The notes under the pieces: generated by a model
Told to the model about the DNA's origin: nothing
Databases searched by the model: none
The model's input: the letters and a program-made list of their open reading frames with translations, nothing else
Assembly (NCBI GenBank): GCA_000165345.1
Contig: CM000432.1
Span: forward strand, 1 to 64,000
Length of the DNA: 64,000 bases
Reading direction: 5' to 3'
Position numbers and translations under genes: made by a program
In this document: one piece after another, positions 11,638-57,699 of the stretch
Numbering within the stretch: the stretch's first letter is position 1
Layout of the letters: each line of letters opens with the position of its first letter

Positions 11638-13671
11638 ATGACTGAAAATTTACAAGAAGGTTCCTTGAATTTCGAATTGCCAAAATTTCAAATAGAAGTT
11701 GGGTTTTGGAAGGCTGCTAGTACTCTTAAATACGATGTTATTAAATCCAGTGAGGATTCGTTTGATATACTTGGTTTTTACAATCAAGAAACAAATATTA
11801 TTCGAATTAGACAAGAGTCTTTGAATTCGAAAAATAAAGAGTATTTAGGTAAAGTTTCAAATTAATATTTCTAACTTAATTTTTTTTTAAATTTCATTTT
11901 TTCGAAAAATTTTTTAGAATACAATAATTCCGTGATTGGAAAGTTGAGTTTAGTCAACTCCATGTCAGCTATCATTAATTTTGGTAATATTGATCATGGC
12001 TGTGACTCCTACCTGGAATCTGCAGTTGATAATGCAATGATGTGGATTAATAATAGTTCTAACCATGAAAAATATCCATTTACTTTCAAATTATGCATTT
12101 ATTTTGATTTTAAAACCCAAATAGCTTATTATAGTGCTTTTTTTCCTAATGTAAACACTAATTTCAACATTAAGACTGACAAACAATCTGAGCTGGGAAT
12201 TGAAATTAAATCAAATTTGCCCGAATATTCTGGTTCGTATATAGATTTAAGCAGCATTAATAAAAACTCAAATTCACTAGCAGTTCTTAAAACATTAAAA
12301 GATAGAGTGGAGGGAAAAATTGGCAATTTTAATGATGAAACAAGCATTGAAAAAAAAGAAAGATTTGATTGCCCATGGTTTTTTTCAACATTACTTACCA
12401 TTATACTTTTTAAAGACAAGTATAAGAATTTACTCAAAACCAATGAAATTATAAAGCTTTTGAAAGAATCAGGTTCGAATGGGAATTTTAAATTTGATTC
12501 GAGAAGCTGTTTTATTTCAAATAAGCATGTTAAAAATGTGCTTGCTATTAGCGATAAAGAAATGAAAGAATTACAATCTGAACACATTCTACCATTTGAT
12601 TTGAAAAATTACTTAAGTCCGCATGAACTCCAACAGAGATTGAGCACAATGAATATTGACTTAATTAAGTGGAGGCTAATACCCAATTTCGAACAGATTC
12701 ACTTTAAGAATTTGAAATTCTTGATAGTAGGTAGTGGTACATTAGGTTGTAGTGTTGCTAGAAATCTTATTGGATGGGGCATACGAAATTTTAAATTCAT
12801 TGATCACTCTAAAGTCAGCTTAAACAATCCAATGAGGCAGTGCTTATTTACATTGGAAGATGTCAAAAATAAGAAAAATAAGGCCATAGCTGCGGTTGAG
12901 AGACTACGATATGTTTGCCCAGATATTCATGCAGAAGGAATCGACTTTGAAATTCCAATACTTGGTGATTCAACATTAAGTCTTGAACAGTTTTTGAAGT
13001 CAGTTAATGAAACAAAAGATAACATAATTGATTCTGATGTGGTAATGTTACTTACAGATAACAAAGAATCAAGATGGCTACCTACAGTCCTTATTGGGCT
13101 AATCAACCGCTATTATAATAGAAGGAGGCCAATATTATGCATCACAGTTGGATTAGGATTTGATTCATTTATTGTAGTCAGAAATACATTCACAGAAACG
13201 GATTATTCTAGTTCTGGGTGCTACTTTTGTGGAGATTTTTCAATTAATTCAAAAAATAATACATTAGATATTCCAGTTGATCAACAATGCTCTGTTGTTA
13301 GAATGGGGGCAAGCTACTTTGCATCTTCAATTGCAGTTGAATTAATTATGAATCTATCTCAGCATCCATTGACATGGAATGCTCCTCATTTAAGTAATGA
13401 ATCTAATAAATCTGATGAAAATAAAAGCCTTCTAGGCACAACTCCACAATGTATTAGAGGGTTTTTAGCTGATTTTTCATTCTGTACTGATCCTATTCAG
13501 AGGAATAAATGTTGTATTGCTTGCTCAGACAAACTAATTGATAAAATTCATAAAGATGAAGTTAATACATTAAGCGAAATTTTTATCAACCCTCGAAAGG
13601 TTGAATCAATTTCTGGATTAACCAATTTTAAATCTGAAATGGAGAAATCAATAACAGAAAGTTATATCTAA
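11638..13671 (+). CDS. ATG7: ubiquitin-like modifier-activating enzyme ATG7 (E1-like, ThiF family), 2 exons: join(11638..11848,11918..13671)
   Basis: The Rossmann motif VGSGTLGCSVARNLIGWGIRNFKFIDHSKVSLNNPMRQCLF matches the ATG7 signature LLLGAGTLGC..R.L.GWGV....VD...VS.SNP.RQ. SRWLP, GFDSF, GCYFCGD, LDQQCSVVR and CCIACS are also conserved. The 69-nt intron has donor GT at 11849 and acceptor AG at 11916-11917, and is phase 1. Confidence 0.85.
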
Positions 13672-33246: not shown

Positions 33247-36200
33247 TTAATTTTGGAATAAAAATTTAAGATCATCAGAATTAAGTTTATTTAGAGCATT
33301 ATTAGATGCTCCAACGGTACCGTCAAAAACAAGTTGTTTCTTTTCTTGTAGTTGAAACATTCTTTCTTCAATCGTATCCTTTGTAATAAACCTTAATGCA
33401 GTAACTTTTTTCTTCTGACCGATTCGATGAGCTCTTTGGAATGCTTGTAATTCAACTGCAGGATTCCACCAAGGATCAAGTAGAAAAACGTAATTAGCAA
33501 CCTGTAAGTTAAGACCTTCACCGCCAGCTTTGAGGCTGATTAAGATTATTTTAAGGTCCGGGAATTTATTAAATGAATACAATATGCTATTTCTTTGAAG
33601 AATTGACATTGAGCCAGCAAGCATTACGCATCCAATATTTGCCTTTTTTAAGCGATAGGAAACCAAGTCAAGCATATTTGTGAATTGAGAAAATACGATT
33701 CCCTTTGATTCAGGATCTTCTTGCATCATTTTATTAACTTCTTCTAATAGTGTATCAATTTTTGTAGAGCTTTCGAACCCTTGAGTTTTAATTTGTCGAG
33801 TAATAAATTTATTTCTAACACAAGAAAGAATGTCTTCATTTTCTTGCTTTGGTTCTTGTTTAAGATTTTCTTTGCTAACATCTATACCTAATTGTTTAGC
33901 CATTTCCATTCTTTCAAGCTCTCTTTCAATTTGCTCTTGCATTTGTTCAGACTCCATATTGTCATTTGTATCATTTTCTTCGTCATTCATTTCATCATAT
34001 CCGGATTTAATCTTTTTATTTTTCTTATTTAAATTCGAAACTTTATTAAAATCAATTGTAAGAGGTACATAGCAAACAGGGCATCCAAGAACTCCTCTCA
34101 TTGTTTGTTCACCTTCTGTATCAAAATCAGTAATTATTTCGTCTTCCTGGGGAGCTTGTTCAATGTATTCTTTGATACATTTAATATGGAATCCATGTTT
34201 GCATTTACTTGTAACTCTTTGATCAATTGTAACATTATCCATGCAAATATAACATAAGTCTTCATTACTGTCAGCTCTGCTTTTTGACGGTATAACTTTT
34301 TTTGAGTCAAAATTTGTTTTTTCTTCTTCTGCATCGTTTAAACATTCAACATCCTTTTCTTCATCATTATCTTCTTCTTTGTATTCTTTTTTATATTCTA
34401 GATCTTTTTTGTGGTTGAATTTTCCATAAACAATTAGATATGGATGATCTACAGCTTGTCTAAGACGACTAATCAAATCAAAGACGTGAGCATAATTGTG
34501 CAAAACTGTTCCTTGATTAACATAAGTATCAAACTGAACTTTAGATCTTTGATATAAAGAAGTATAGAAATCTTTTTCTGGGGCAGAAAGCTCATTATTT
34601 ATAACTTTAATTTCTAATGGTGGAAGCCTAACGTCTTCTTGTCGTTGAACTTTTGTTCTTCTTAGTAAAACTTTATCTAATACCTCCTTTTTAAGCCTTC
34701 TTAAGGCTTCAGAGCCTTCTCCAGAGAAACCATATCTTTTGATTGGATTAATAATTAATTTGTTAAAATATGAATAATGACATGATCTTGCATGACCACA
34801 AAACGAACAATATTTTAAATGTGTAACATAGTTTAATTGCCTACAATCGCAATCTACCTTATTGCAAAAGTTATAAGCATAGGGATGAAATCCAATAAAT
34901 CTAACAAGAGAGTAGAGTTCGCCAACCCTATTTTGAAGAGGGGTACCTGTAAGACACCATTTTGTTCCTCTAGACTTTAAAGCAAAAATTGCCTTTGCAG
35001 TAGAAGTTGTTCTTGCCTTAATTCTGTGCGCTTCATCCAAAATAATGCGATTCCAGCTTCTTCCAAAAATCGCTGAATATTCTCTTAACTTTTGGATAAT
35101 TTCATCCTCTTCATTATCATCTTCTTCATCATCAATTTCATCAATTTCTTCTACTACTTTATATTCATCGTCATCATCATCATCATTCTGCTTTTTTTTT
35201 TGGTTCTTAGCATTTTTTCTACGTTTTATATTCAAGTCTTGGGAGTCATCAGATTCGTCATATTCGGAATATTCATCAATTGATTCTTCTTCGGCATTAT
35301 AATCGTCCTCGAATTCATCTTCGTACTTCTTCTTTTTTCTACTATTCTTAGAATTATTACTCTTCGTATTTGCTTTTTTATTGCTATTATGAGTAGACTT
35401 TGAAGTTTTTTTAGTATTTTGATTCAAATGATTCCCTTCATTAGAATTATTGTCAGGGTTATCAAGTCCCAATATATTTGACAGTTTATCCACGAGTTCA
35501 GCCTTTCGAAGAGATTTACAGTTATCATATAATTCAACCAAGGAATCCAATATTTGTCCATCAATATTGAATCTAGTAGATAAATACTCCTTGCTATTTT
35601 CAATACTTGAAAGGAATTCCTTTATAGATTTTACTGTCTCTGATTTTAAAGGCAGTTTAATTCCTCCCCATTCCAATAAAGAAAGTAAATTTTCTTCAGG
35701 TTCATCCTTTACAATTTCAGTCTTTTGAATTTTTTCTTCAGTATCGTTTTCCTTTAACGAATTACTAGAGTCTTCCTTTTTAACTAATTGTTGACTTTTT
35801 CTTCTGGAAGTAAACCAAGGCAAGGCTGAAGACAATGATTCATCGTCAAGTAAGTCTGCTTTAGCAAGTATTTCTCTATAAACATTGCTAATTGTTGGTA
35901 AACTACGAGCAATATCTTCCAACTGTTTTGCCTTATCAACACCTTCCTCTAATCCAATCTTTAAAGTTCTCATAGCTTTTTTTAAACCTTCATTTTTTCT
36001 TTCAGTAAGTGCTTGTTTAGCTGTTCTCATGGAGTTTGGACCACAAAAGTATCTAAGGTGAATCTTCAAAGTCCTTTTTAAGAATGATCTATCACAGTAA
36101 GGACATTTAGATTTGAATGCTGATGCAATCTTTCTATATTCAGCTTCCAATGTAGGGTAGGTGGTAATTACTACGTCAGCATCATCAATGTCAACTCCAC

Positions 36201-37083
36201 CATAATCTTGTTTAGTACCTTTATTTCCTTGGTTCTTATTTCTTTTTGAACCATGGTAAATGTGTACTTTTAATGAACCAGGTTTTGTAAATCTTTCAAT
36301 TTCCTGTTTCCATTGTAGCACTGCTGCGACAGGAGCAATTACCAAATTTTTTCCAATAACTTCTCCTTTTTCTGCTTTATTTGTAACAGGTGGAATATCA
36401 TGTTCTAGAATTAATGATATTGTCTGAATGGTCTTTCCCATACCCATTTCATCAGCTAAAATACCTCCTCTTGCAGTTGATTTTTCCTGATTACAAAGCC
36501 ATGCTAAACCTTCTTTTTGAAATTGTAATAATTCATATGTAAGTTTTATGGGGGTAGGTTTTACTTCTACAATTGAACGGCTAATTAGGTCATCTGAGTT
36601 TTCAATGGTGAATTCATTAGGATTTGTTATGATTTCTTTTGTGCACAAATCAAGAAATTCGTCCCTTATTCCAATAGGTAAACAACTCCAACCATAGGTA
36701 ACTTCTGAAATTCTCCTCTCAATTTCATCTAAGTTAAATTCATGGCCTTGAATTGCTTTTTTAAGATACTTTTGCGAGCAAGGATTAATGTGGTTCCATC
36801 TATTTATTATCCCATACATTCCTCTTCTATCATATTCAGGCACACCTAGTCTATAAGTACCTTTTGTTATTGTTTTTCCACATACTGCACATCTAGATAT
36901 ATTACTCGGAGTCAAAACAGCAACAAATAATTTTTGTTCTATAATACTCTTCTGATCTTCATCCAATTCATCTATTTTTAAATTTGGTACCCATTCTTTA
37001 ACTTTTGGCTCCCAGTATGCATTATTTAAAAGTACAATAGGTTTTCTGCTACTAAGCATTTCTCCCAAGTCAGGATCTGCCAT
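33247..37083 (-). CDS. SNF2-family DNA-dependent ATPase with an embedded RING finger (RAD5/RAD16/HLTF-like) and an N-terminal PARP-type zinc finger
   Basis: DEXH box [20 protein letters not shown] is present. The HELICc block [47 protein letters not shown] is present. A RING (CYICMDNV...CKHGFHIKC) sits between the helicase lobes. The N-terminus has [11 protein letters not shown]...RWNHINPC (zf-PARP-like). Acidic and basic low-complexity insertions are present. Confidence 0.85.
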   Translation of the reverse strand: [1278 protein letters not shown]

Positions 37084-37555: not shown

Positions 37556-38959
37556 TTAAAATATCATTCCTTGGTATGGAGTAAATGAGATAGAAGTGCT
37601 GCTTCCCAATTTAGAATCGCTTCCAGATAGTGTTTCAATCTTACTACTAGAACTAGAGCTTTTTAGGCTTCCAACTTGAAGACCTCTAATTCTTCTACCA
37701 CCTTCACCGGCGCTCAATAGTCCCAAACCAATGGTTTTCCCATCAACAGTGTATTCTTCCTCTTCCTCTCCGAATTTCATTCTATTCATCTCTTTTTTAA
37801 TTTTAGTTTGTTTGAATTTTTCTTTAATTTTTCGAATTCTTTTTCCACCTCTCCTAGATTTTGGAAAATCTTTTGGAATAGGAAGTGGCTTTTTCATAGG
37901 TTTTTGAGGAGGTTCCTGAGCTTTTTCTAAAATATTAAGTATATAGTTTCGATAGTTAACTCCATGATCTGGACTTTTATCTGTACTAGAGAAGTCAATT
38001 CTTGCACATAATCCACATTTTAAAGATACAAGTCTGATTGCCTTCTTCTTATATTTATCTTGAATGTTTCTTACAATATCGCTTTGAGAAATAATGCTTT
38101 GAAGTAATTCTAACCTTACTGGACCAGTAGAAAAGTGACCATTTTTTTTATTGTTTTTTAAGCTTCCAAGTACCATAATGTTTTGTGATGGCATTTCCGC
38201 TAAATTTTTAAGTCCTCCTGAGACACATAAAAGATTAGCAGCAATTTCGGGGCCAATTAATGCAGACAGATTTGGAGTAATAGCCTCTATTTGAAATTGT
38301 AGAAATTCTAGTATTTTTGATTTACTTTCGTTGATTTGATTAACAAAATCAATACATTTTAAAATTGATTCTTTCTTTTCTAAAGTTGGAATGTTTCTTT
38401 TGCTAGTACTTGAAGAAATGGTAATTGTCATAATTGTAGAGTTTGGTAAAATATCATTAAGCTTCACATCTTCAAAGTTTTCATGAGTAATTATCCTTTT
38501 CACAACTTCTAAATAGTCTATCTTGTTTATTATTATACTTGCAAGCTCACCAAAGTGATCCTTATATAAAGCTTTAACACATTCATATTTTTCTGAAACT
38601 TTTGAATCAATTATTCCTACTATATCTATAATTTCTTGAAATGTACCATAAATTTCATTACCAAAATCTTTTAATTGGTAATTTGAATTCATAACATTAG
38701 TTGATGAATCGATCATTTTTCCAAATAATCGGTCATTTAAATTACCGATTTTACTAATAATTTCATCATCACTATATTTCCCATCTTCGGAAATCTGGCC
38801 TTTATTGTTAATATTGCTAGATGCTGAATAATCAAGATCTTCCAAATCTTTCAACAGTAATTCCTGCAATGAAGACTGATATGATTGAAGATAGACGAGA
38901 AGAAAAATACATAAATTAATCAATAATGTGGGATTAAGAACATGAAATTAACTTACCAT
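37556..38959 (-). CDS. PRP31: U4/U6 snRNP protein PRP31 (Nop domain), 2 exons: join(37556..38875,38957..38959). The first exon is the ATG only.
   Basis: Nop domain LSALIGPEIAANLLCVSGGLKNLAEMPSQNIMVLGS...RLVSLKCGLCARID...KPLPIPKDFPKSRRGGKRIRKIKE matches PRP31 (LSALIGP..AAKL...GGL..LAKMPA.NI..LG). ATG at 38959-38957 is followed immediately by GTAAGT. The acceptor caatcatatcag is at 38877-38876 and the intron is 81 nt. The spliced N-terminus MSSLQELLLKDLEDLD parallels human MSLADELLADLEE. Confidence 0.85.
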
Positions 38960-39054
38960 TATTAATTTATTTTTATTCAAAATCAGTTCATTTTTAGAAA
39001 AAGAAACGAAGAAAAAATATAAAAAACAAAAAATATAAATTAAATATCAAGTGT

Positions 39055-39062
39055 TGGCGCCT
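39055..39062. promoter_or_regulatory. TTGGCGCC motif just upstream of the PRP31 start, between PRP31 and the next gene's 3' end
   Basis: Read directly. Confidence 0.3.
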
Positions 39063-39094
39063 AATTTTAAATTATTGTCATGAAAATCTTTTTA

Positions 39095-39976
39095 TTAATT
39101 AGTAAGCTTTCGCCTTTTGGAGCGGAGAATCATATGGGAATTCCATGCTCTAATTAGCTTTATAGATGCATTTGTATTCGTAGCTGTTGACTGAATAACT
39201 AAATCTTGATCTACATTTTCGTAATGAATTGTTGCATCATTCTGAAGACTATTAGAACTGCAGATTTCTTTCTCAGCTACCTGCTCTGTAATTAAATCAA
39301 TGAATGAGTTTTTTACATCCGTCTCTGGTTCTAGGCTGTTGTTATCATTGCTGATTTTCAAGGAAGTACTATTTTTCGAGTTAAGTGGGATATCACTTTT
39401 CTCAACAATTGAACTGTAAGATACAACCTCTCCCAAATCCTCAACTTCTTCATCAAAGTATTGCATCTGTAACGGTTCTGAAGTTTTATTTATGAAGTTC
39501 GAATTTATTTTATTATTTTTATGACTATTTATAGAAATGGAGCTGCTTTGATTAGAGTGGCTTGACTTAACTGGTATAGTAGGAATAATATGATCGATAG
39601 TAACCTTAATATTAATTATCACTGAAAATATTCTACTCAAAATGGAAAATAAAAGGAAAACCAAAGTCAAGAAAAAGCCGTGTGATAATAATCTAGAAAT
39701 AGATGTTCCAGCATCCTTAAGATCCCATTTAATTCTGCGAACTATTTTTCTGAGGTCTTTGAGATTTTTATAGTAATTTTCAGCATTTTCTGTGGATTTA
39801 TTATTATAAAATGTTTCTTGCAAAGCAATATAAAAAAGTTTGAGTTCTTTTGTAATCCTAAAGATACTCTTAAAATAACCTAGCCTACCATGTTGATTCT
39901 TAAATTTATATATAACTCTTTCAAGTAACTTTAGCTCTTGAGATAAGGCTTTACAGTAGTAGTTAATTTTTTCCAT
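39095..39976 (-). CDS. hypothetical protein, possibly an RNase MRP subunit RMP1-like (NEPRO/RMP1 N-terminal domain)
   Basis: The N-terminal ELKLLERVIYKFKNQHGRLGYFKSI resembles the RMP1 signature L.LL.HRNKNQHR...W. It is followed by a hydrophobic block, as in yeast Rmp1. Weak similarity only. Confidence 0.3.
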   Translation of the reverse strand: MEKINYYCKALSQELKLLERVIYKFKNQHGRLGYFKSIFRITKELKLFYIALQETFYNNKSTENAENYYKNLKDLRKIVRRIKWDLKDAGTSISRLLSHGFFLTLVFLLFSILSRIFSVIINIKVTIDHIIPTIPVKSSHSNQSSSISINSHKNNKINSNFINKTSEPLQMQYFDEEVEDLGEVVSYSSIVEKSDIPLNSKNSTSLKISNDNNSLEPETDVKNSFIDLITEQVAEKEICSSNSLQNDATIHYENVDQDLVIQSTATNTNASIKLIRAWNSHMILRSKRRKLTN

Positions 39977-52197: not shown

Positions 52198-55100
52198 ATG
52201 ACAATTTCTAGAAGCAGTTCATCATTAAATGAAGATGGAAAAATCAATCGAAGTAAGATTGTTCCATATATTACAAGAGAGATGAGTATTGCTCAGCTTC
52301 AAGATAAGAAATACCATAGTTTTGTGCAAAATACATTGGCAGATTATCAAGCAAGTGCATTTGATGCTCAGAAAATTGCATTGGAAAAAGATAAAGAGCT
52401 TAAAGAGTTGAGAGATACACAAAATTCAGTTAAGGTTTCGTTAAAGTATTATCAAGAGAAATGCCAGCAGTTAGAAAATGAGCTTAAAGCAACTTCAATG
52501 GGGCTATTATATGGGAGGAAGGAAAAAGAACAAGAGAGAGAAATTGCAAGATTGAGTACTGAAATAACAAGTTTTGAGAAAAAAAAAGAGGAGTTAGAAA
52601 CAAACTTGAGATATTATCAAGATAGAGAAATGTATTTACAGCACGAGTTGGAACTTAAAGAAAATGAATTAAATAAGCTATCTCAAGAATTTGCCACTTT
52701 AACAGAGACATATAATAGTACATATTCGGAATTAGAGAAATGTAAATTTGACTTAAGTACGGAACAGAATAATAATAAAACATTAGAAAATCAATTAAAA
52801 GTAAAGAATGACGAGATTACAAAATATAAAGGAAGTTTAACAACTAAAGAAGCGGAAATTAATAATTTGAAGAATGAAATACAAAAATTGAACTCAATGG
52901 TTGAAATCAATAAATCTGAAATAAATACTATTAGTGAGCAGCTTAAATTAAAACAGAAAGAGTGCTTAGATTATAGTAGTAAGATTCAACAAATAGAATT
53001 GGATATGAGAAAAAACTTGGATGAAAACGAAGTATTAATTAAGGATTTAAATTCACAGATAACTTTGACTAGAAATGACTTGACTCAAAAGGTTGAATTA
53101 ATTAATGAGTTAAACTCTCGAATTTCTACATTAGATTTAAAGCTACAAGAATCGTCAAGAGATATATTGGAAAAAGAAAAAACTATAGGAAAGCTTAAAG
53201 CTGAACAGCAGATTACTAGTTTAGAGGCTGATGGTCTTAAAACGAAGATTCAGATTATTGAACAAGAGAAAACCAATATTGAACAAGAAATTGAAACGAT
53301 ATTGGTAGAAAAGAAAAAAATAGATGAAGAACTTAAAGATACAATTAATAGGAAGAATTCCAAGTTAGATGAAGCTTTAACTTACAGAATTGAATCAGCT
53401 ATAACTGCTGAGAGAGAAATTAATCAACTTAAAGAAAAGAACCAAATAATTGAATTTGAGAAAAAAATGATGGAGGAAAAATTGGAAATTTCTAATAATA
53501 ATATAAAAATAAAAGATGATGAAATTCAACAACTTAAAACTACAATCCAAGATCTTAATCGACAAAATATTAAACTTGAGAATGAGCTTCATTCATTACA
53601 AGAAAGTAGCAGAAGAGAAAGTGTGGAGAATACATTTAGAAGTAGTAGAATTGGCTCAAATATTGTAAGTAGTAAAATCAATGCATCATCTGGGTCTACA
53701 GTTAATACCAGTGAAAATACAATTTCTAGTAATATAGCAACTAGTAATGCTGAAACTGTTGAAAAAGTAGTTAATGCTGATACTTTAGTTGACACATCTA
53801 TTCAAGATTCAGCTGTAAATGCTGCTTCTACAACAGTTAAAATGCCATCATCCAAATCAATTTCAAGTAAAAGTGCAATTTCCTCATTGCCAAAGCCAAA
53901 AGCTAAAAGTGCAGTTAAATCAGCTCCTGCTACTGAAGAGAATAACGGTGATCAAACAATATCTGAACCTGCATCTATATCTGAAGTTAAATCTAAAGCT
54001 GGAAGTAAATCAATGCCAGTTTCAAAATCCAAATCTGTAATTAAAGCTAAATCTCAGGTTGTTGCTAAATCCGATATGGATTCTGGACAAATTGTAAAGG
54101 AAGACAATGAGACCAAGGACAATGAGGATGAAGCGGCCAAGGTTAGAGCTCAGAAAGAAAAGGAGGAAGCAGAAGCAAAAGCTTTAAAAGAGAAGGAAGA
54201 AGCTGAGGCCAAAGCCAAGAAAGAAAAAGAAGAGGCTGAGGCTAAAGCTTTAAAGGAGAAAGAAGAAGCTGAGGCCAAAGCTAAGAAAGAAAAGGAGAAG
54301 GAAGAAGCTGAGGCCAAAGCTAAGAAAGAAAAAGAGGAAGCTGAGGCCAAGGCTAAGAAGGAAAAGGAAGAAGCTGAGGCCAAAGCTTTAAAAGAGAAAG
54401 AAGAAGCTGAGGCTAAAGCCAAGAAAGAAAAGGAGAAGGAAGAAGCTGAGGCCAAGGCAAAGAAAGAAAAAGAGGAGGCTGAGGCTAAAGCTAAAAAGGA
54501 GAAGGAGGAGGCTGAGGCAAAGGCCAAGAAGGAGAAGGAGGAAGCTGAAGCCAAAGCTAAGAAAGAGAAGGAGGAAGCTGAGGCCAAAGCTAAGAAAGAA
54601 AAAGAGGAAGCTGAGGCCAAGGCTAAGAAGGAGAAGGAGGAAGCTGAGGCCAAGGCTAAAAAGGAGAAGGAAGAGGCTGAGGCTAAAGCCAAGAAAGAAA
54701 AGGAGGAGGCTGAGGCTGAGGCTGAGGCAAAGGCAAAGAAAGAAAAGGAGGAGGCTGAGGCAAAGGCCAAGAAGGAGAAGGAAGAAGCTGAGGCCAAAGC
54801 TAAGAAAGAGAAGGAGGAAGCTGAGGCCAAAGCTAAGAAAGAAAAAGAGGAAGCTGAGGCCAAGGCTAAAAAGGAAAAAGAGGAGGCTGAGGCTAAAGCC
54901 AAGAAAGAAAAAGAAGAGGCTGAGGCTAAAGCTAAGAAGGAGAAGGAGGAAGCTGAGGCCAAGGCTAAAAAGGAGAAGGAAGAGGCTGATACAAAAGAGA
55001 AAGAGAAGACAGAAATCAAAGAAAATTCAAAAATAGATTCAGATAGTGAGGAAAACTCTGAATCTAAAGAAAAGAAGTCAACTGGACTACTTGCTAAGAC

Positions 55101-57699
55101 AATAGCAAAAGCTAAGGCAAAATCAAAGTCTAATTCTGTCTTATCAAAGCTTCCTTCTAAAGTTAATAAAGAAACAAGCAAAGCTGAGAATGATTTAGAA
55201 AATGAGATAGAAAAAGATGATGAATCAAATAAAAAAGAAACTAAAAAGGAGGAAGATTCAATAGCAAAGCTTAAAGCAAAAGTACCTGTTAAGCCAAGTC
55301 CTTTATTGAAATCAAAGAGTGAAAAAGAAAAGGAGAAAGAAGAAGATAAAGATGAGGAGAAGAAAGAAAAGGACAAAGAGAAAAAGGAAAAGTTAAAAGA
55401 AAAAGAAGAGGAAGGTAAGGAGAAAAGTAATGAAAAGGATAAAGGAGAAGATAAGGATGAAAAGGATAAATCAAAAAGTAAAATAAAAGACTCTCAGAAA
55501 GAGGAAAAATTAGAAGAAACGGAGAAAAATTCATTAAAGAAAGAGTCCAAAGATGATGAGAAGAAAGAAAAGGAGGATCCAATAGCGAAACTTAAGGCGA
55601 AAGTACCTGTTAAGCCAAGTCCTTTATTGAAATCAAAGAGTGAAAAAGAAAAGGAGAAAGAAGATAAAGATGAGGAGAAGAAAGAAAAGGAGGACAAAGA
55701 GAAAAAGGAAAAGTTAAAAGAAAAAGGAGAGGAAGGCAAGGAAAAGGAGGAAGGTAAAGAAAAGGAGAAAGAGAAAGAAAAGGATGAAAAGGATAAATCA
55801 AAAAGTAAAACAAAAGATTTTGAGAAAGAAAAATTAAAGGAAACTGAAAAGGGCGAAAAAGAAGCCGAAAAAGATTCATCAAAGAAAGAGTCCAAAGATG
55901 AGGAGAAGAAAGAAAAGGAGGATCCAATAGCAAAACTTAAGGCAAAGGTACCTGTTAAGCCAAGTCCTTTATTGAAATCAAAGAGTGAAAAAGAAAAGGA
56001 GAAAGAAGAAGATAAAGATGAGGAGAAGAAAGAAAAGGAGGACAAAGAGAAAAAAGAAAAGTTAAAAGAAAAAGAAGAGGAAGGTAAAGAAAAAGAGAAA
56101 GAAAAGGTCAAAGCTCAAAAGAAAAAAGATGAAAAGGAAGAAAAAGATAAGGACGAAAAAGAAGATGATAAAGAAAAGAGTAAAGAAAGTGAAAATCTTG
56201 AAAAAAAACCAACTATTTCAGAAAAAGTTATAAACCCTGAAGGTAAAATTGATGAGAAGGACTCAGAAAAAGAAACTTTAAATCATAGTAAAACTAAGGA
56301 AATTGCTAAAACAAAGGCTGCAGCTCAACTTAAGGCAGCTATATTAGCAAGAGCATCATCTAAAAAGAATATATCAGCTGATAATAGTGAAGATTCAAAG
56401 TTAAAGAAATCTGAATCTAAGAAAGATATTATCAAAGATGAAGCCAAAGATGAAAGTAAGACAAATAAAGATGGAAAGGATCTCAAAAAAACTTTGAAAG
56501 AAGGTGAGGGTTCAATTTCAAAGGTTAAAGGAAAAGGTAAGGTAAAGACTAAGGCAAAGGCAAAAGAAGCCCCACCTCCAGCTGAAGAATCAAGTTGGTT
56601 CAGTGGTTGGTTTGGAACTTCAGCACCGGAAGAACCTCCCAAAGAAGAGGAGAAAAAAGAAGAGAAAAAAGAGGATGAAACGCCGCCACCACCACCACCA
56701 GCTGAGGAGTCAAGTTGGTTCAGTGGTTGGTTTGGAACCTCAGCACCTGAAGAACCACCTAAGGAGGATCCAGCGAAAAAACCTCCTAAAAAGCATTTAG
56801 TTAAGAAATCATCTTCTGTGAAGAAAGATGATGGCGAAAAGAAAGAAGAAAAGGAGGAAAAGAAGGAGGTGAAGAAAGACGAAAAAGAGGAGAAGAAAGA
56901 TGAAAAAGAGGATAAGAAAGACGAAAAGAAGGAAGGAATAGAGGAGACAAAAGAGAAGAAAGAGGAGAAGAAGGAAGGTGACGAAAAGAAGGATGAAACA
57001 GATAATAAGGAGGTAAAGGAAATTGCTGAAAAGGAAAAAACAGGGGTAGACCCAGAGAAAAAAGCTGTCAAAGCAAAGACAAAATCTAAAGCAAAGGCTA
57101 AAGCTAAGGAAGAGCCACCTCCTGCACCACCAGCAGAAGAATCAAGTTGGTTCAGTGGTTGGTTTGGAGCTTCAGCACCGGAAGAACCTCCTAAAGAAGA
57201 GGAGAAAAAAGAAGAGAAAAAAGAGGATGCACCACCAGCTGAAGAGTCGAGCTGGTTCGGCGGTTGGTTTGGAGCCTCCACACCTGAAGAGCCACCTAAG
57301 GAAGATCCAGCAAAAAGACCTACTCCAAAAGTACATCCGGCAAAAAAATCATCCTCCGTGAAGAAGGATAATGATGAAAAGAAAGAAGAAAAGGAGGAAA
57401 AGAAGGAGGAGAAAAAAGAGGAAAAGAAGGAGGAGAAGAAAGAGGAAAAGGAGGAAAAGAAAGAGGACGATGAAAAAGAAAAAAAAGTAGTAAAAGCTAA
57501 AACAAAAACAAAAGCAAAAGCAAAAGCCAAGGCTAAGGAAGAGCCACCTCCTGCACCACCAGCAGAAGAGTCAAGCTGGTTCAGTGGCTGGTTTGGAGCT
57601 GCTGCACCCGCAGAGCCCGAGCCAGAACCAAATAAAGAAGAGCCAAAGGAGGAACAAAAAACTGAGGAACCTGCTGCAACATCCTGGTGGGGATGGTAA
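52198..57699 (+). CDS. giant coiled-coil / low-complexity protein of 1833 aa. The N-terminal 500 aa is heptad coiled-coil. The rest is Lys/Glu-rich with three distinct tandem-repeat arrays and a Trp-rich C-terminus (TSWWGW).
   Basis: Single uninterrupted ORF. All antisense ORFs (54150..55376, 55494..56111, 56325..57530 and others) are repeat shadows. Confidence 0.75.
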   Translation: MTISRSSSSLNEDGKINRSKIVPYITREMSIAQLQDKKYHSFVQNTLADYQASAFDAQKIALEKDKELKELRDTQNSVKVSLKYYQEKCQQLENELKATSMGLLYGRKEKEQEREIARLSTEITSFEKKKEELETNLRYYQDREMYLQHELELKENELNKLSQEFATLTETYNSTYSELEKCKFDLSTEQNNNKTLENQLKVKNDEITKYKGSLTTKEAEINNLKNEIQKLNSMVEINKSEINTISEQLKLKQKECLDYSSKIQQIELDMRKNLDENEVLIKDLNSQITLTRNDLTQKVELINELNSRISTLDLKLQESSRDILEKEKTIGKLKAEQQITSLEADGLKTKIQIIEQEKTNIEQEIETILVEKKKIDEELKDTINRKNSKLDEALTYRIESAITAEREINQLKEKNQIIEFEKKMMEEKLEISNNNIKIKDDEIQQLKTTIQDLNRQNIKLENELHSLQESSRRESVENTFRSSRIGSNIVSSKINASSGSTVNTSENTISSNIATSNAETVEKVVNADTLVDTSIQDSAVNAASTTVKMPSSKSISSKSAISSLPKPKAKSAVKSAPATEENNGDQTISEPASISEVKSKAGSKSMPVSKSKSVIKAKSQVVAKSDMDSGQIVKEDNETKDNEDEAAKVRAQKEKEEAEAKALKEKEEAEAKAKKEKEEAEAKALKEKEEAEAKAKKEKEKEEAEAKAKKEKEEAEAKAKKEKEEAEAKALKEKEEAEAKAKKEKEKEEAEAKAKKEKEEAEAKAKKEKEEAEAKAKKEKEEAEAKAKKEKEEAEAKAKKEKEEAEAKAKKEKEEAEAKAKKEKEEAEAKAKKEKEEAEAEAEAKAKKEKEEAEAKAKKEKEEAEAKAKKEKEEAEAKAKKEKEEAEAKAKKEKEEAEAKAKKEKEEAEAKAKKEKEEAEAKAKKEKEEADTKEKEKTEIKENSKIDSDSEENSESKEKKSTGLLAKTIAKAKAKSKSNSVLSKLPSKVNKETSKAENDLENEIEKDDESNKKETKKEEDSIAKLKAKVPVKPSPLLKSKSEKEKEKEEDKDEEKKEKDKEKKEKLKEKEEEGKEKSNEKDKGEDKDEKDKSKSKIKDSQKEEKLEETEKNSLKKESKDDEKKEKEDPIAKLKAKVPVKPSPLLKSKSEKEKEKEDKDEEKKEKEDKEKKEKLKEKGEEGKEKEEGKEKEKEKEKDEKDKSKSKTKDFEKEKLKETEKGEKEAEKDSSKKESKDEEKKEKEDPIAKLKAKVPVKPSPLLKSKSEKEKEKEEDKDEEKKEKEDKEKKEKLKEKEEEGKEKEKEKVKAQKKKDEKEEKDKDEKEDDKEKSKESENLEKKPTISEKVINPEGKIDEKDSEKETLNHSKTKEIAKTKAAAQLKAAILARASSKKNISADNSEDSKLKKSESKKDIIKDEAKDESKTNKDGKDLKKTLKEGEGSISKVKGKGKVKTKAKAKEAPPPAEESSWFSGWFGTSAPEEPPKEEEKKEEKKEDETPPPPPPAEESSWFSGWFGTSAPEEPPKEDPAKKPPKKHLVKKSSSVKKDDGEKKEEKEEKKEVKKDEKEEKKDEKEDKKDEKKEGIEETKEKKEEKKEGDEKKDETDNKEVKEIAEKEKTGVDPEKKAVKAKTKSKAKAKAKEEPPPAPPAEESSWFSGWFGASAPEEPPKEEEKKEEKKEDAPPAEESSWFGGWFGASTPEEPPKEDPAKRPTPKVHPAKKSSSVKKDNDEKKEEKEEKKEEKKEEKKEEKKEEKEEKKEDDEKEKKVVKAKTKTKAKAKAKAKEEPPPAPPAEESSWFSGWFGAAAPAEPEPEPNKEEPKEEQKTEEPAATSWWGW
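54150..54990 (+). repeat. about 29 tandem copies of a 39-bp unit encoding KEKEEAEAKAKKE (with KAL/KAK alternation) inside CDS 52198..57699
   Basis: Read directly from the sequence. There is synonymous wobble variation between units (gaa/gag, aaa/aag, gct/gcc), so this is not a sequencing artefact. Confidence 0.9.
55255..56100 (+). repeat. three tandem copies of a 320-345-bp unit (about 110 aa, starting DSIAKLKAKVPVKPSPLLKSKSEKEKEKEEDKDEEKKEK) inside CDS 52198..57699
   Basis: Units begin near 55261, 55581 and 55925 with more than 90% identity. Confidence 0.85.
56570..57620 (+). repeat. five dispersed copies of an aromatic motif module PPAEESSWFSGWFG(A/T)SAPEEPPKE(E/D), separated by KE-rich spacers. 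Four copies form two pairs and the fifth stands alone.
   Basis: Copies begin near 56575, 56695, 57130, 57235 and 57550. Confidence 0.85.

Follow-up and report, generated by a model that had tools for sequence, protein, structure and literature searches.

Phase-0 introns that separate the start codon from codon 2 form a recognised class, over-represented in animals, fungi and plants, and they are enriched among short, lysine-rich proteins, ribosomal proteins especially (Nielsen & Wernersson 2006, PMC1626468). Introns of the same class have also been noted in diplomonads (PMC6679479) and in Yarrowia (PMC13309789). For Cryptosporidium, a search of the literature turned up no specific statement on start-codon introns. 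An RNA-seq-based reannotation of C. parvum brought intron-containing genes up from 4.3% to 10.8% and described introns with a mean length of 99 nt and a G+C content of 22% (PMC4637869). Here, we describe the C. parvum gene for PRP31, whose coding sequence almost certainly consists of a one-codon first exon, an 81-nt GT-AG phase-0 intron and a second exon, together yielding a 440-aa product. In both length and G+C content this intron is typical for C. parvum. The PRP31 start-codon intron is itself already known, in that it belongs to a known intron class and its one-codon exon is present in current C. parvum annotations; the small new results of this analysis are the corrected starts of the C. 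felis and C. ryanae genes and an intron position in common with Theileria equi.

The PRP31 gene and the anatomy of its start

The window, meaning the whole stretch of 64,000 nucleotides that was analysed, is AT-rich (about 28% G+C) and, judged by its sequence, represents the 64 kb next to a telomere of C. parvum chromosome 4. Within its first 360 positions, degenerate telomeric CCTAAA repeats follow a string at 1-45 (AGCTTGGCATGCCTGG...GGATCCCC) that resembles a noisy pUC-type polylinker and possibly derives from a vector or adapter left at the assembly end. An 1833-aa ORF on the plus strand (52198-57699), in a region where purine skew is strong (G+C 0.37-0.39, AT skew up to 0.62), probably encodes a protein of low complexity or repetitive sequence. 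Rfam gave no match anywhere in the window. Over 7404 nt around PRP31 the sequence agrees with C. parvum CP029783.1 at every position and has 5 mismatches to CM109964.1. The synteny around PRP31, with an RMP1-like gene upstream and a SNF2/RING helicase gene downstream, is kept in every Cryptosporidium locus fetched.

The gene under study lies on C. parvum chromosome 4 and encodes PRP31, a protein of the U4/U6 snRNP. Its spliced coding sequence of 1323 nt (440 aa plus stop) encodes a Nop domain (PF01798, E = 8.2e-53, profile positions 4-228 of 228) and a Prp31_C domain (PF09785, E = 2.4e-26, profile positions 3-118 of 123), and the product is 98-100% identical to Cryptosporidium PRP31 proteins. 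A phmmer comparison with solved spliceosome structures returned the human Prp31 chain at 2e-53, aligned over human residues 103-460, and the yeast Prp31 chain at 9e-34. The match to these structures begins at residue 90 and does not cover the N-terminus; as it stops short of that region, the N-terminal match was checked by a separate alignment. The Nop and Prp31_C domains are held in common with human PRPF31 and yeast Prp31 of the U4/U6.U5 tri-snRNP (PDB 3jcr_J, 3jcm_I, 2ozb_B), as is the acidic N-terminal L-x-D-L-E-D-L motif, although the Cryptosporidium protein is shorter (440 aa versus 499 and 494 aa, respectively). By homology, the C. parvum protein would be expected to bind the U4 snRNA 5' stem-loop with Snu13/15.5K and to bridge to U5 in the tri-snRNP.

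The features of the locus are collected in Table 1. The original prediction had placed an initiator ATG immediately before a consensus donor, followed by an 81-nt intron after which the frame resumes, and its coordinates proved exact. Without splicing, the frame opened by this ATG reads M-V-S-stop, and full-length PRP31 from this ATG therefore needs splicing; removal of the intron restores one long ORF that starts at the ATG. Exon 2 opens at 38875 with TCT TCA TTG CAG GAA, corresponding to SSLQELLLKDLEDLD, and remains open for 439 codons. The intron displays in order the consensus donor GTAAGT, a pyrimidine tract (TTTTTCTTCTCGTCTATCTTC) and the acceptor CAG, and it contains putative branch points of the TTAAT/TCAAT type. 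The further claim that exon 1 consists of the start codon only holds for the coding part and fails for the exon itself, which must also carry the 5'UTR.

Table 1. Features of the C. parvum PRP31 locus (positions within the 64,000-nt window)
Feature	Position	Strand	Basis or remark
SNF2/RING helicase gene	33247-37083	-	downstream neighbour of PRP31; ORF list and Pfam
Exon 2, PRP31 codons 2-440 and stop	37556..38875	-	translation
TAA stop of PRP31	37558-37556	-	translation
Prp31_C domain, coding part	about 37897-37565	-	Pfam
Nop domain, coding part	about 38614-37922	-	Pfam
Met55, first internal in-frame ATG	38714..38716	-	start in some intron-less public models (386 aa)
Second in-frame acceptor, CAG	38864..38866	-	12 nt downstream of main acceptor
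Phase-0 spliceosomal intron, 81 nt	38876..38956	-	AT-rich, 26% G+C; read directly
Acceptor AG	38877-38876	-	intron end ...ATCAG; read directly
Pyrimidine-rich tract	about 38909-38881	-	within 3' part of intron
Donor GTAAGT	38956-38951	-	directly after ATG
Initiator ATG	38957..38959	-	entire coding content of exon 1; read directly
Gap to stop codon of upstream RMP1-like gene, 135 nt	38960..39094	-	ORF list
Upstream ATG in AAAATGAA (38987-38994)	38991-38989	-	out of frame, M-N-stop; 32 nt before start
GGCGCC palindrome	39056-39061		minus-strand context AAAATTAGGCGCCAACA; about 100 nt upstream of PRP31 ATG
RMP1-like gene	39095-39976	-	upstream neighbour of PRP31; ORF list and Pfam RMP1

Expression of the gene in this form would proceed from a transcription start within the 135 nt that follow the RMP1-like gene. 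The resulting exon 1 would comprise a short 5'UTR and the ATG only, the canonical GT-AG (U2-type) phase-0 intron of 81 nt would be removed, and splicing would join the ATG to the TCT at 38875, giving a 440-aa protein that starts MSSLQELLLKDLEDLD.

The motif by itself is not significant and does not count as evidence. The 9-mer ATGGTAAGT is present in 2 copies in the window against 0.46 expected, a number reached by 7 of 100 shuffles, and GTAAGT occurs 29 times against 24 expected. Only at the PRP31 copy does an AG in the next 300 nt open an ORF of 150 aa or more. The second copy (12393-12401, minus strand) was considered as another one-codon exon and rejected, since no AG within 300 nt of it opens an ORF of that size. 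The repetition of the entire arrangement in 11 Cryptosporidium lineages, on the other hand, is far beyond chance.

Conservation across Cryptosporidium and in Theileria equi

Orthologous loci from 11 Cryptosporidium lineages were searched for ATGGTA[AG]GT followed by an AG opening an ORF of more than 400 aa. The ATG^GTA[AG]GT exon (^ marks the splice junction) was found in all of the lineages fetched, the gastric species C. serpentis included, with GTAAGT as the donor in 9/11 and GTAGGT in 2/11, and in each of them the first in-frame AG gives a protein starting M^[S/T/A/N][S/T]L[Q/S]. The intron measures 81 nt in C. parvum and C. hominis, 79 nt in C. meleagridis and C. serpentis, 80 nt in chipmunk genotype I, 75 nt in C. 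ubiquitum, 84 nt in C. canis, 86 nt in the SRR31860986 lineage, 78 nt in C. felis, 70 nt in C. bovis and 74 nt in C. ryanae. These lengths (70-86 nt) fall into all three modulo 3 classes (0, 1 and 2); each intron with a length that is a multiple of 3 contains an in-frame stop, and in the others read-through leaves the frame of exon 2. Read-through of the intron therefore cannot be coding. Identity of the intron to that of C. parvum declines to about 0.4 in distant species, with indels, and its G+C content ranges from 0.10 to 0.56 across lineages, tracking the genome, with no sequence conservation beyond the splice signals.

The sequence directly after the acceptor varies in the manner of a coding region. 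Over the first 15 codons of exon 2, variable columns are distributed 12/5/15 by codon position (9/3/15 without C. serpentis), and comparison with C. parvum gave 49 synonymous and 26 non-synonymous codon differences. Codons 2-5 vary synonymously (TCA/TCG/TCT, TTG/TTA/CTA, CAG/CAA and GAA/GAG), and coding therefore begins at the proposed acceptor.

Identification of the gene as PRP31 with a conserved N-terminus, as originally proposed from the sequence, is upheld by the Nop and Prp31_C domains and by alignment of the extreme N-terminus. With the intron removed, the Met aligns with residue 1 of the PRP31 orthologs MSLADELLADLEDL (P0016), MATLADSFLADLEDL (P0012) and MGTLADAFLEDLEDL. When the N-termini of six other PRP31 proteins are aligned with it, L9, D11 and L12 do not vary, and in 5/6 of them the Met falls in the same column. 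The conserved pattern M-x-(S/T)-L-x-(D/E)-x-(L/F)-L-x-D-L-E-D-L is present from residue 1 in the C. parvum product, and it stands at residue 1 only if the 81-nt intron is removed.

Comparison with orthologs, which the original prediction had named as one of its checks, showed the intron position to be kept in the 11 Cryptosporidium lineages and also in Theileria equi. The PRP31 gene of the latter (CP001669.1, L013:801-844), an annotated gene, reads ATG^GTAAGA...TTTAG^GGC ACT TTG GCT GAC with a 38-nt intron. The position of this intron is identical to that in Cryptosporidium, and tblastn puts residues 2-78 directly after it. An ancient intron and parallel gain at an ATG^G proto-splice site would account equally well for the position shared with this one outgroup.

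Public gene models and alternative readings

The spliced model matches at every residue the C. parvum protein P0022 of 440 aa (QOY41903.1 / KAL5368903.1 / WKS77206.1), and the annotated gene span in two NCBI assemblies is 1404 nt (3+81+1320), which implies an intron of exactly 81 nt. The current C. parvum models thus show no difference from the spliced reading, either in protein or in implied exon-intron structure. We take QOY41903.1, by its accession series, to belong to the 2022 C. parvum IOWA-ATCC annotation. The introns of the IOWA-ATCC annotation (2022) are stated to be 100% supported by RNA-seq (PMC8744675), and this published support together with the comparative evidence suggests that the junction is used in vivo. 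The sources of P0022 are NCBI, UniRef, nr and eukprot only; none of the Logan contigs in the protein collection has the spliced product, and on Logan contigs the gene calls made in prokaryote style begin at TTG. The spliced junction 26-mer had 0 matches among metagenome contigs, a collection in which a match is hardly expected, and a look for the PRP31 gene in the supplement of Isaza 2015 returned nothing.

A start of the form M^(S/T/A)(S/T)L is present in the C. hominis models CUV05394.1, OLQ17240.1 and KAL3128372.1 and in models from C. tyzzeri, C. meleagridis, chipmunk genotype I, C. ubiquitum, C. canis, C. bovis and C. serpentis, and the gene spans of the intron-containing models of other Cryptosporidium species imply introns of 70-84 nt. 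Older or automatic models differ from these in that the one-codon exon was missed. The 2004 model (EAK87734.1 / XP_625624.1, 463 aa, 'partial') translates the intron as FHVLNPTLLINLCIFLLVYLQSYQ^SSLQ and has no start codon. Two C. hominis models (PPA65047.1 and PPS93133.1; P0028 and P0029, MIDSS...) begin at Met55 and are, at 386 aa, 54 residues short. The C. felis model (P0007, 354 aa) is 83 residues short, and the C. ryanae model (P0009) starts MYLSELEN from a false start inside the intron and uses a different, 53-nt intron. With the one-codon exon restored, C. felis PRP31 (L010:1174-1254, start 1174) becomes a protein of 437 aa starting M^ASLQELLLKDLVDLD, and C. ryanae PRP31 (L008:1453-1529, start 1453) one of 427 aa starting M^NSLQELLLKDLSELEN. 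A further public model, WRK32125.1 (453 aa, 'partial'), keeps the M^SSLQ junction and adds 13 codons into the 5' flank. The earlier expectation that gene finders easily miss such an exon is illustrated by EAK87734.1 and by the models from C. hominis, C. felis and C. ryanae; for this one essential gene, missing the one-codon exon has led to at least five public models that are wrong. The practical value of this case lies in annotation quality, as a one-codon coding exon is not findable by ORF- or homology-based gene finders.

The divergent models also embody the main alternatives to a one-codon exon with an 81-nt intron. The two 386-aa C. hominis models were built as if there were no intron, with translation from Met55 and a merely coincidental ATG-GTAAGT, and the frequency of ATGGTAAGT alone, which is not statistically unusual in the window, agrees with such a coincidence. 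However, a start at Met55 discards the 53 codons between the start ATG and Met55, which are open and conserved as protein in 11/11 lineages and which hold the conserved PRP31 N-terminal motif, and ATG^GTA[AG]GT stands at the matching position in every lineage; we consider this reading extremely improbable. Coding that continues upstream without an ATG in the gap, either as in the 2004 'partial' read-through model or by way of a further upstream coding exon, can practically be dismissed. EAK87734.1 does run through the intron sequence and WRK32125.1 does reach into the 5' flank, but read-through hits a TAA two codons after the ATG, the 2004 model is without a start codon, and some of the orthologous intron lengths are not multiples of 3. 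An alternative in-frame upstream exon, the arrangement regarded from the outset as incompatible with an initiator at this ATG, was looked for in the 135-nt gap and none was plausible. Upstream, the frame of the ATG runs back to a TGA at a distance of 30 codons, and from there to the donor it has no other ATG. The gap contains two GTs of which neither is donor-like, and only 135 nt lie between the ATG and the end of the upstream gene, which leaves an upstream coding exon without credibility.

A different choice of acceptor was weighed as well. Use of the second in-frame CAG as the main acceptor would keep the one-codon exon and remove a 93-nt intron, giving a 436-aa protein starting M^ELLLKDLEDLD. 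This site is in frame, is a good YAG, lies downstream of the same pyrimidine tract and is CAG in C. parvum, C. hominis, chipmunk genotype I, C. ubiquitum and SRR31860986, yet it is not conserved in 6/11 lineages, being CAA in C. meleagridis, C. canis, C. felis, C. bovis and C. ryanae and AGT in C. serpentis. Splicing to it would skip the four codons S-S-L-Q, which are conserved as protein with synonymous changes and align with M-x-[ST]-L-x of other PRP31 proteins, and all intron-containing public models have the 81-nt intron. In 3' splice-site selection, the usual choice is the first AG to follow the branch point and the pyrimidine tract. Given its replacement by CAA or AGT in 6/11 lineages and the conserved residues that would be lost, the downstream site is at best a minor acceptor, and we regard it as very improbable that it is the main one.

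The upstream region and comparison with known start-codon introns

For the gene with its one-codon exon and 81-nt intron, the 135 nt that separate it from the upstream gene must hold both the PRP31 promoter and the 5'UTR. The gap contains two other ATGs, both out of frame, which open ORFs of 2 and 4 codons. One of them lies in AAAATGAA, and a motif AAAATGA(A/G) with an out-of-frame ATG is found 33-38 nt before the start in intestinal species from C. parvum to C. felis, where the ORFs of the upstream ATG comprise 2 to 8 codons. The AAAATGAA upstream ATG may act as an upstream ORF or as a core-promoter/initiator element, and if transcribed, this conserved ATG would complicate initiation at the PRP31 ATG. 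Further upstream, the GGCGCC palindrome is kept in eight Cryptosporidium lineages though the flanks have otherwise diverged, and in the intestinal species both this motif and that of AAAATGAA are conserved. The palindrome presumably resembles the E2F-like upstream motif reported for C. parvum.

A role of the intron in regulation is conceivable, though we hold it to be an improbable one. The intron position may be ancient, common to Cryptosporidium and Theileria and kept through massive intron loss, with PRP31 output tied to spliceosome activity so that the gene serves as a feedback sensor of splicing capacity, perhaps together with the upstream AAAATGAA ATG. If this were true, production of a core tri-snRNP protein would hinge on splicing, and unspliced mRNA would give only M-V-S-stop.

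Compared with described start-codon introns, the PRP31 intron is a textbook example. It is likewise a phase-0 GT-AG intron right after the ATG, in a gene for a conserved protein without a signal peptide; its position is conserved between distant species, as is also true of the described class; and its ATG^G context fits the proto-splice-site idea discussed for that class (PMC1626468). Unlike the typical proteins of start-codon-intron genes, which are short and lysine-rich (PMC1626468), PRP31 is a 440-aa spliceosomal protein, and its host is an intron-poor genome in which about 10.8% of genes have introns (PMC4637869). The mild interest of the case lies in the genus-wide conservation of the intron and in the fact that a piroplasm has one at the matching site, in genomes with most introns lost.
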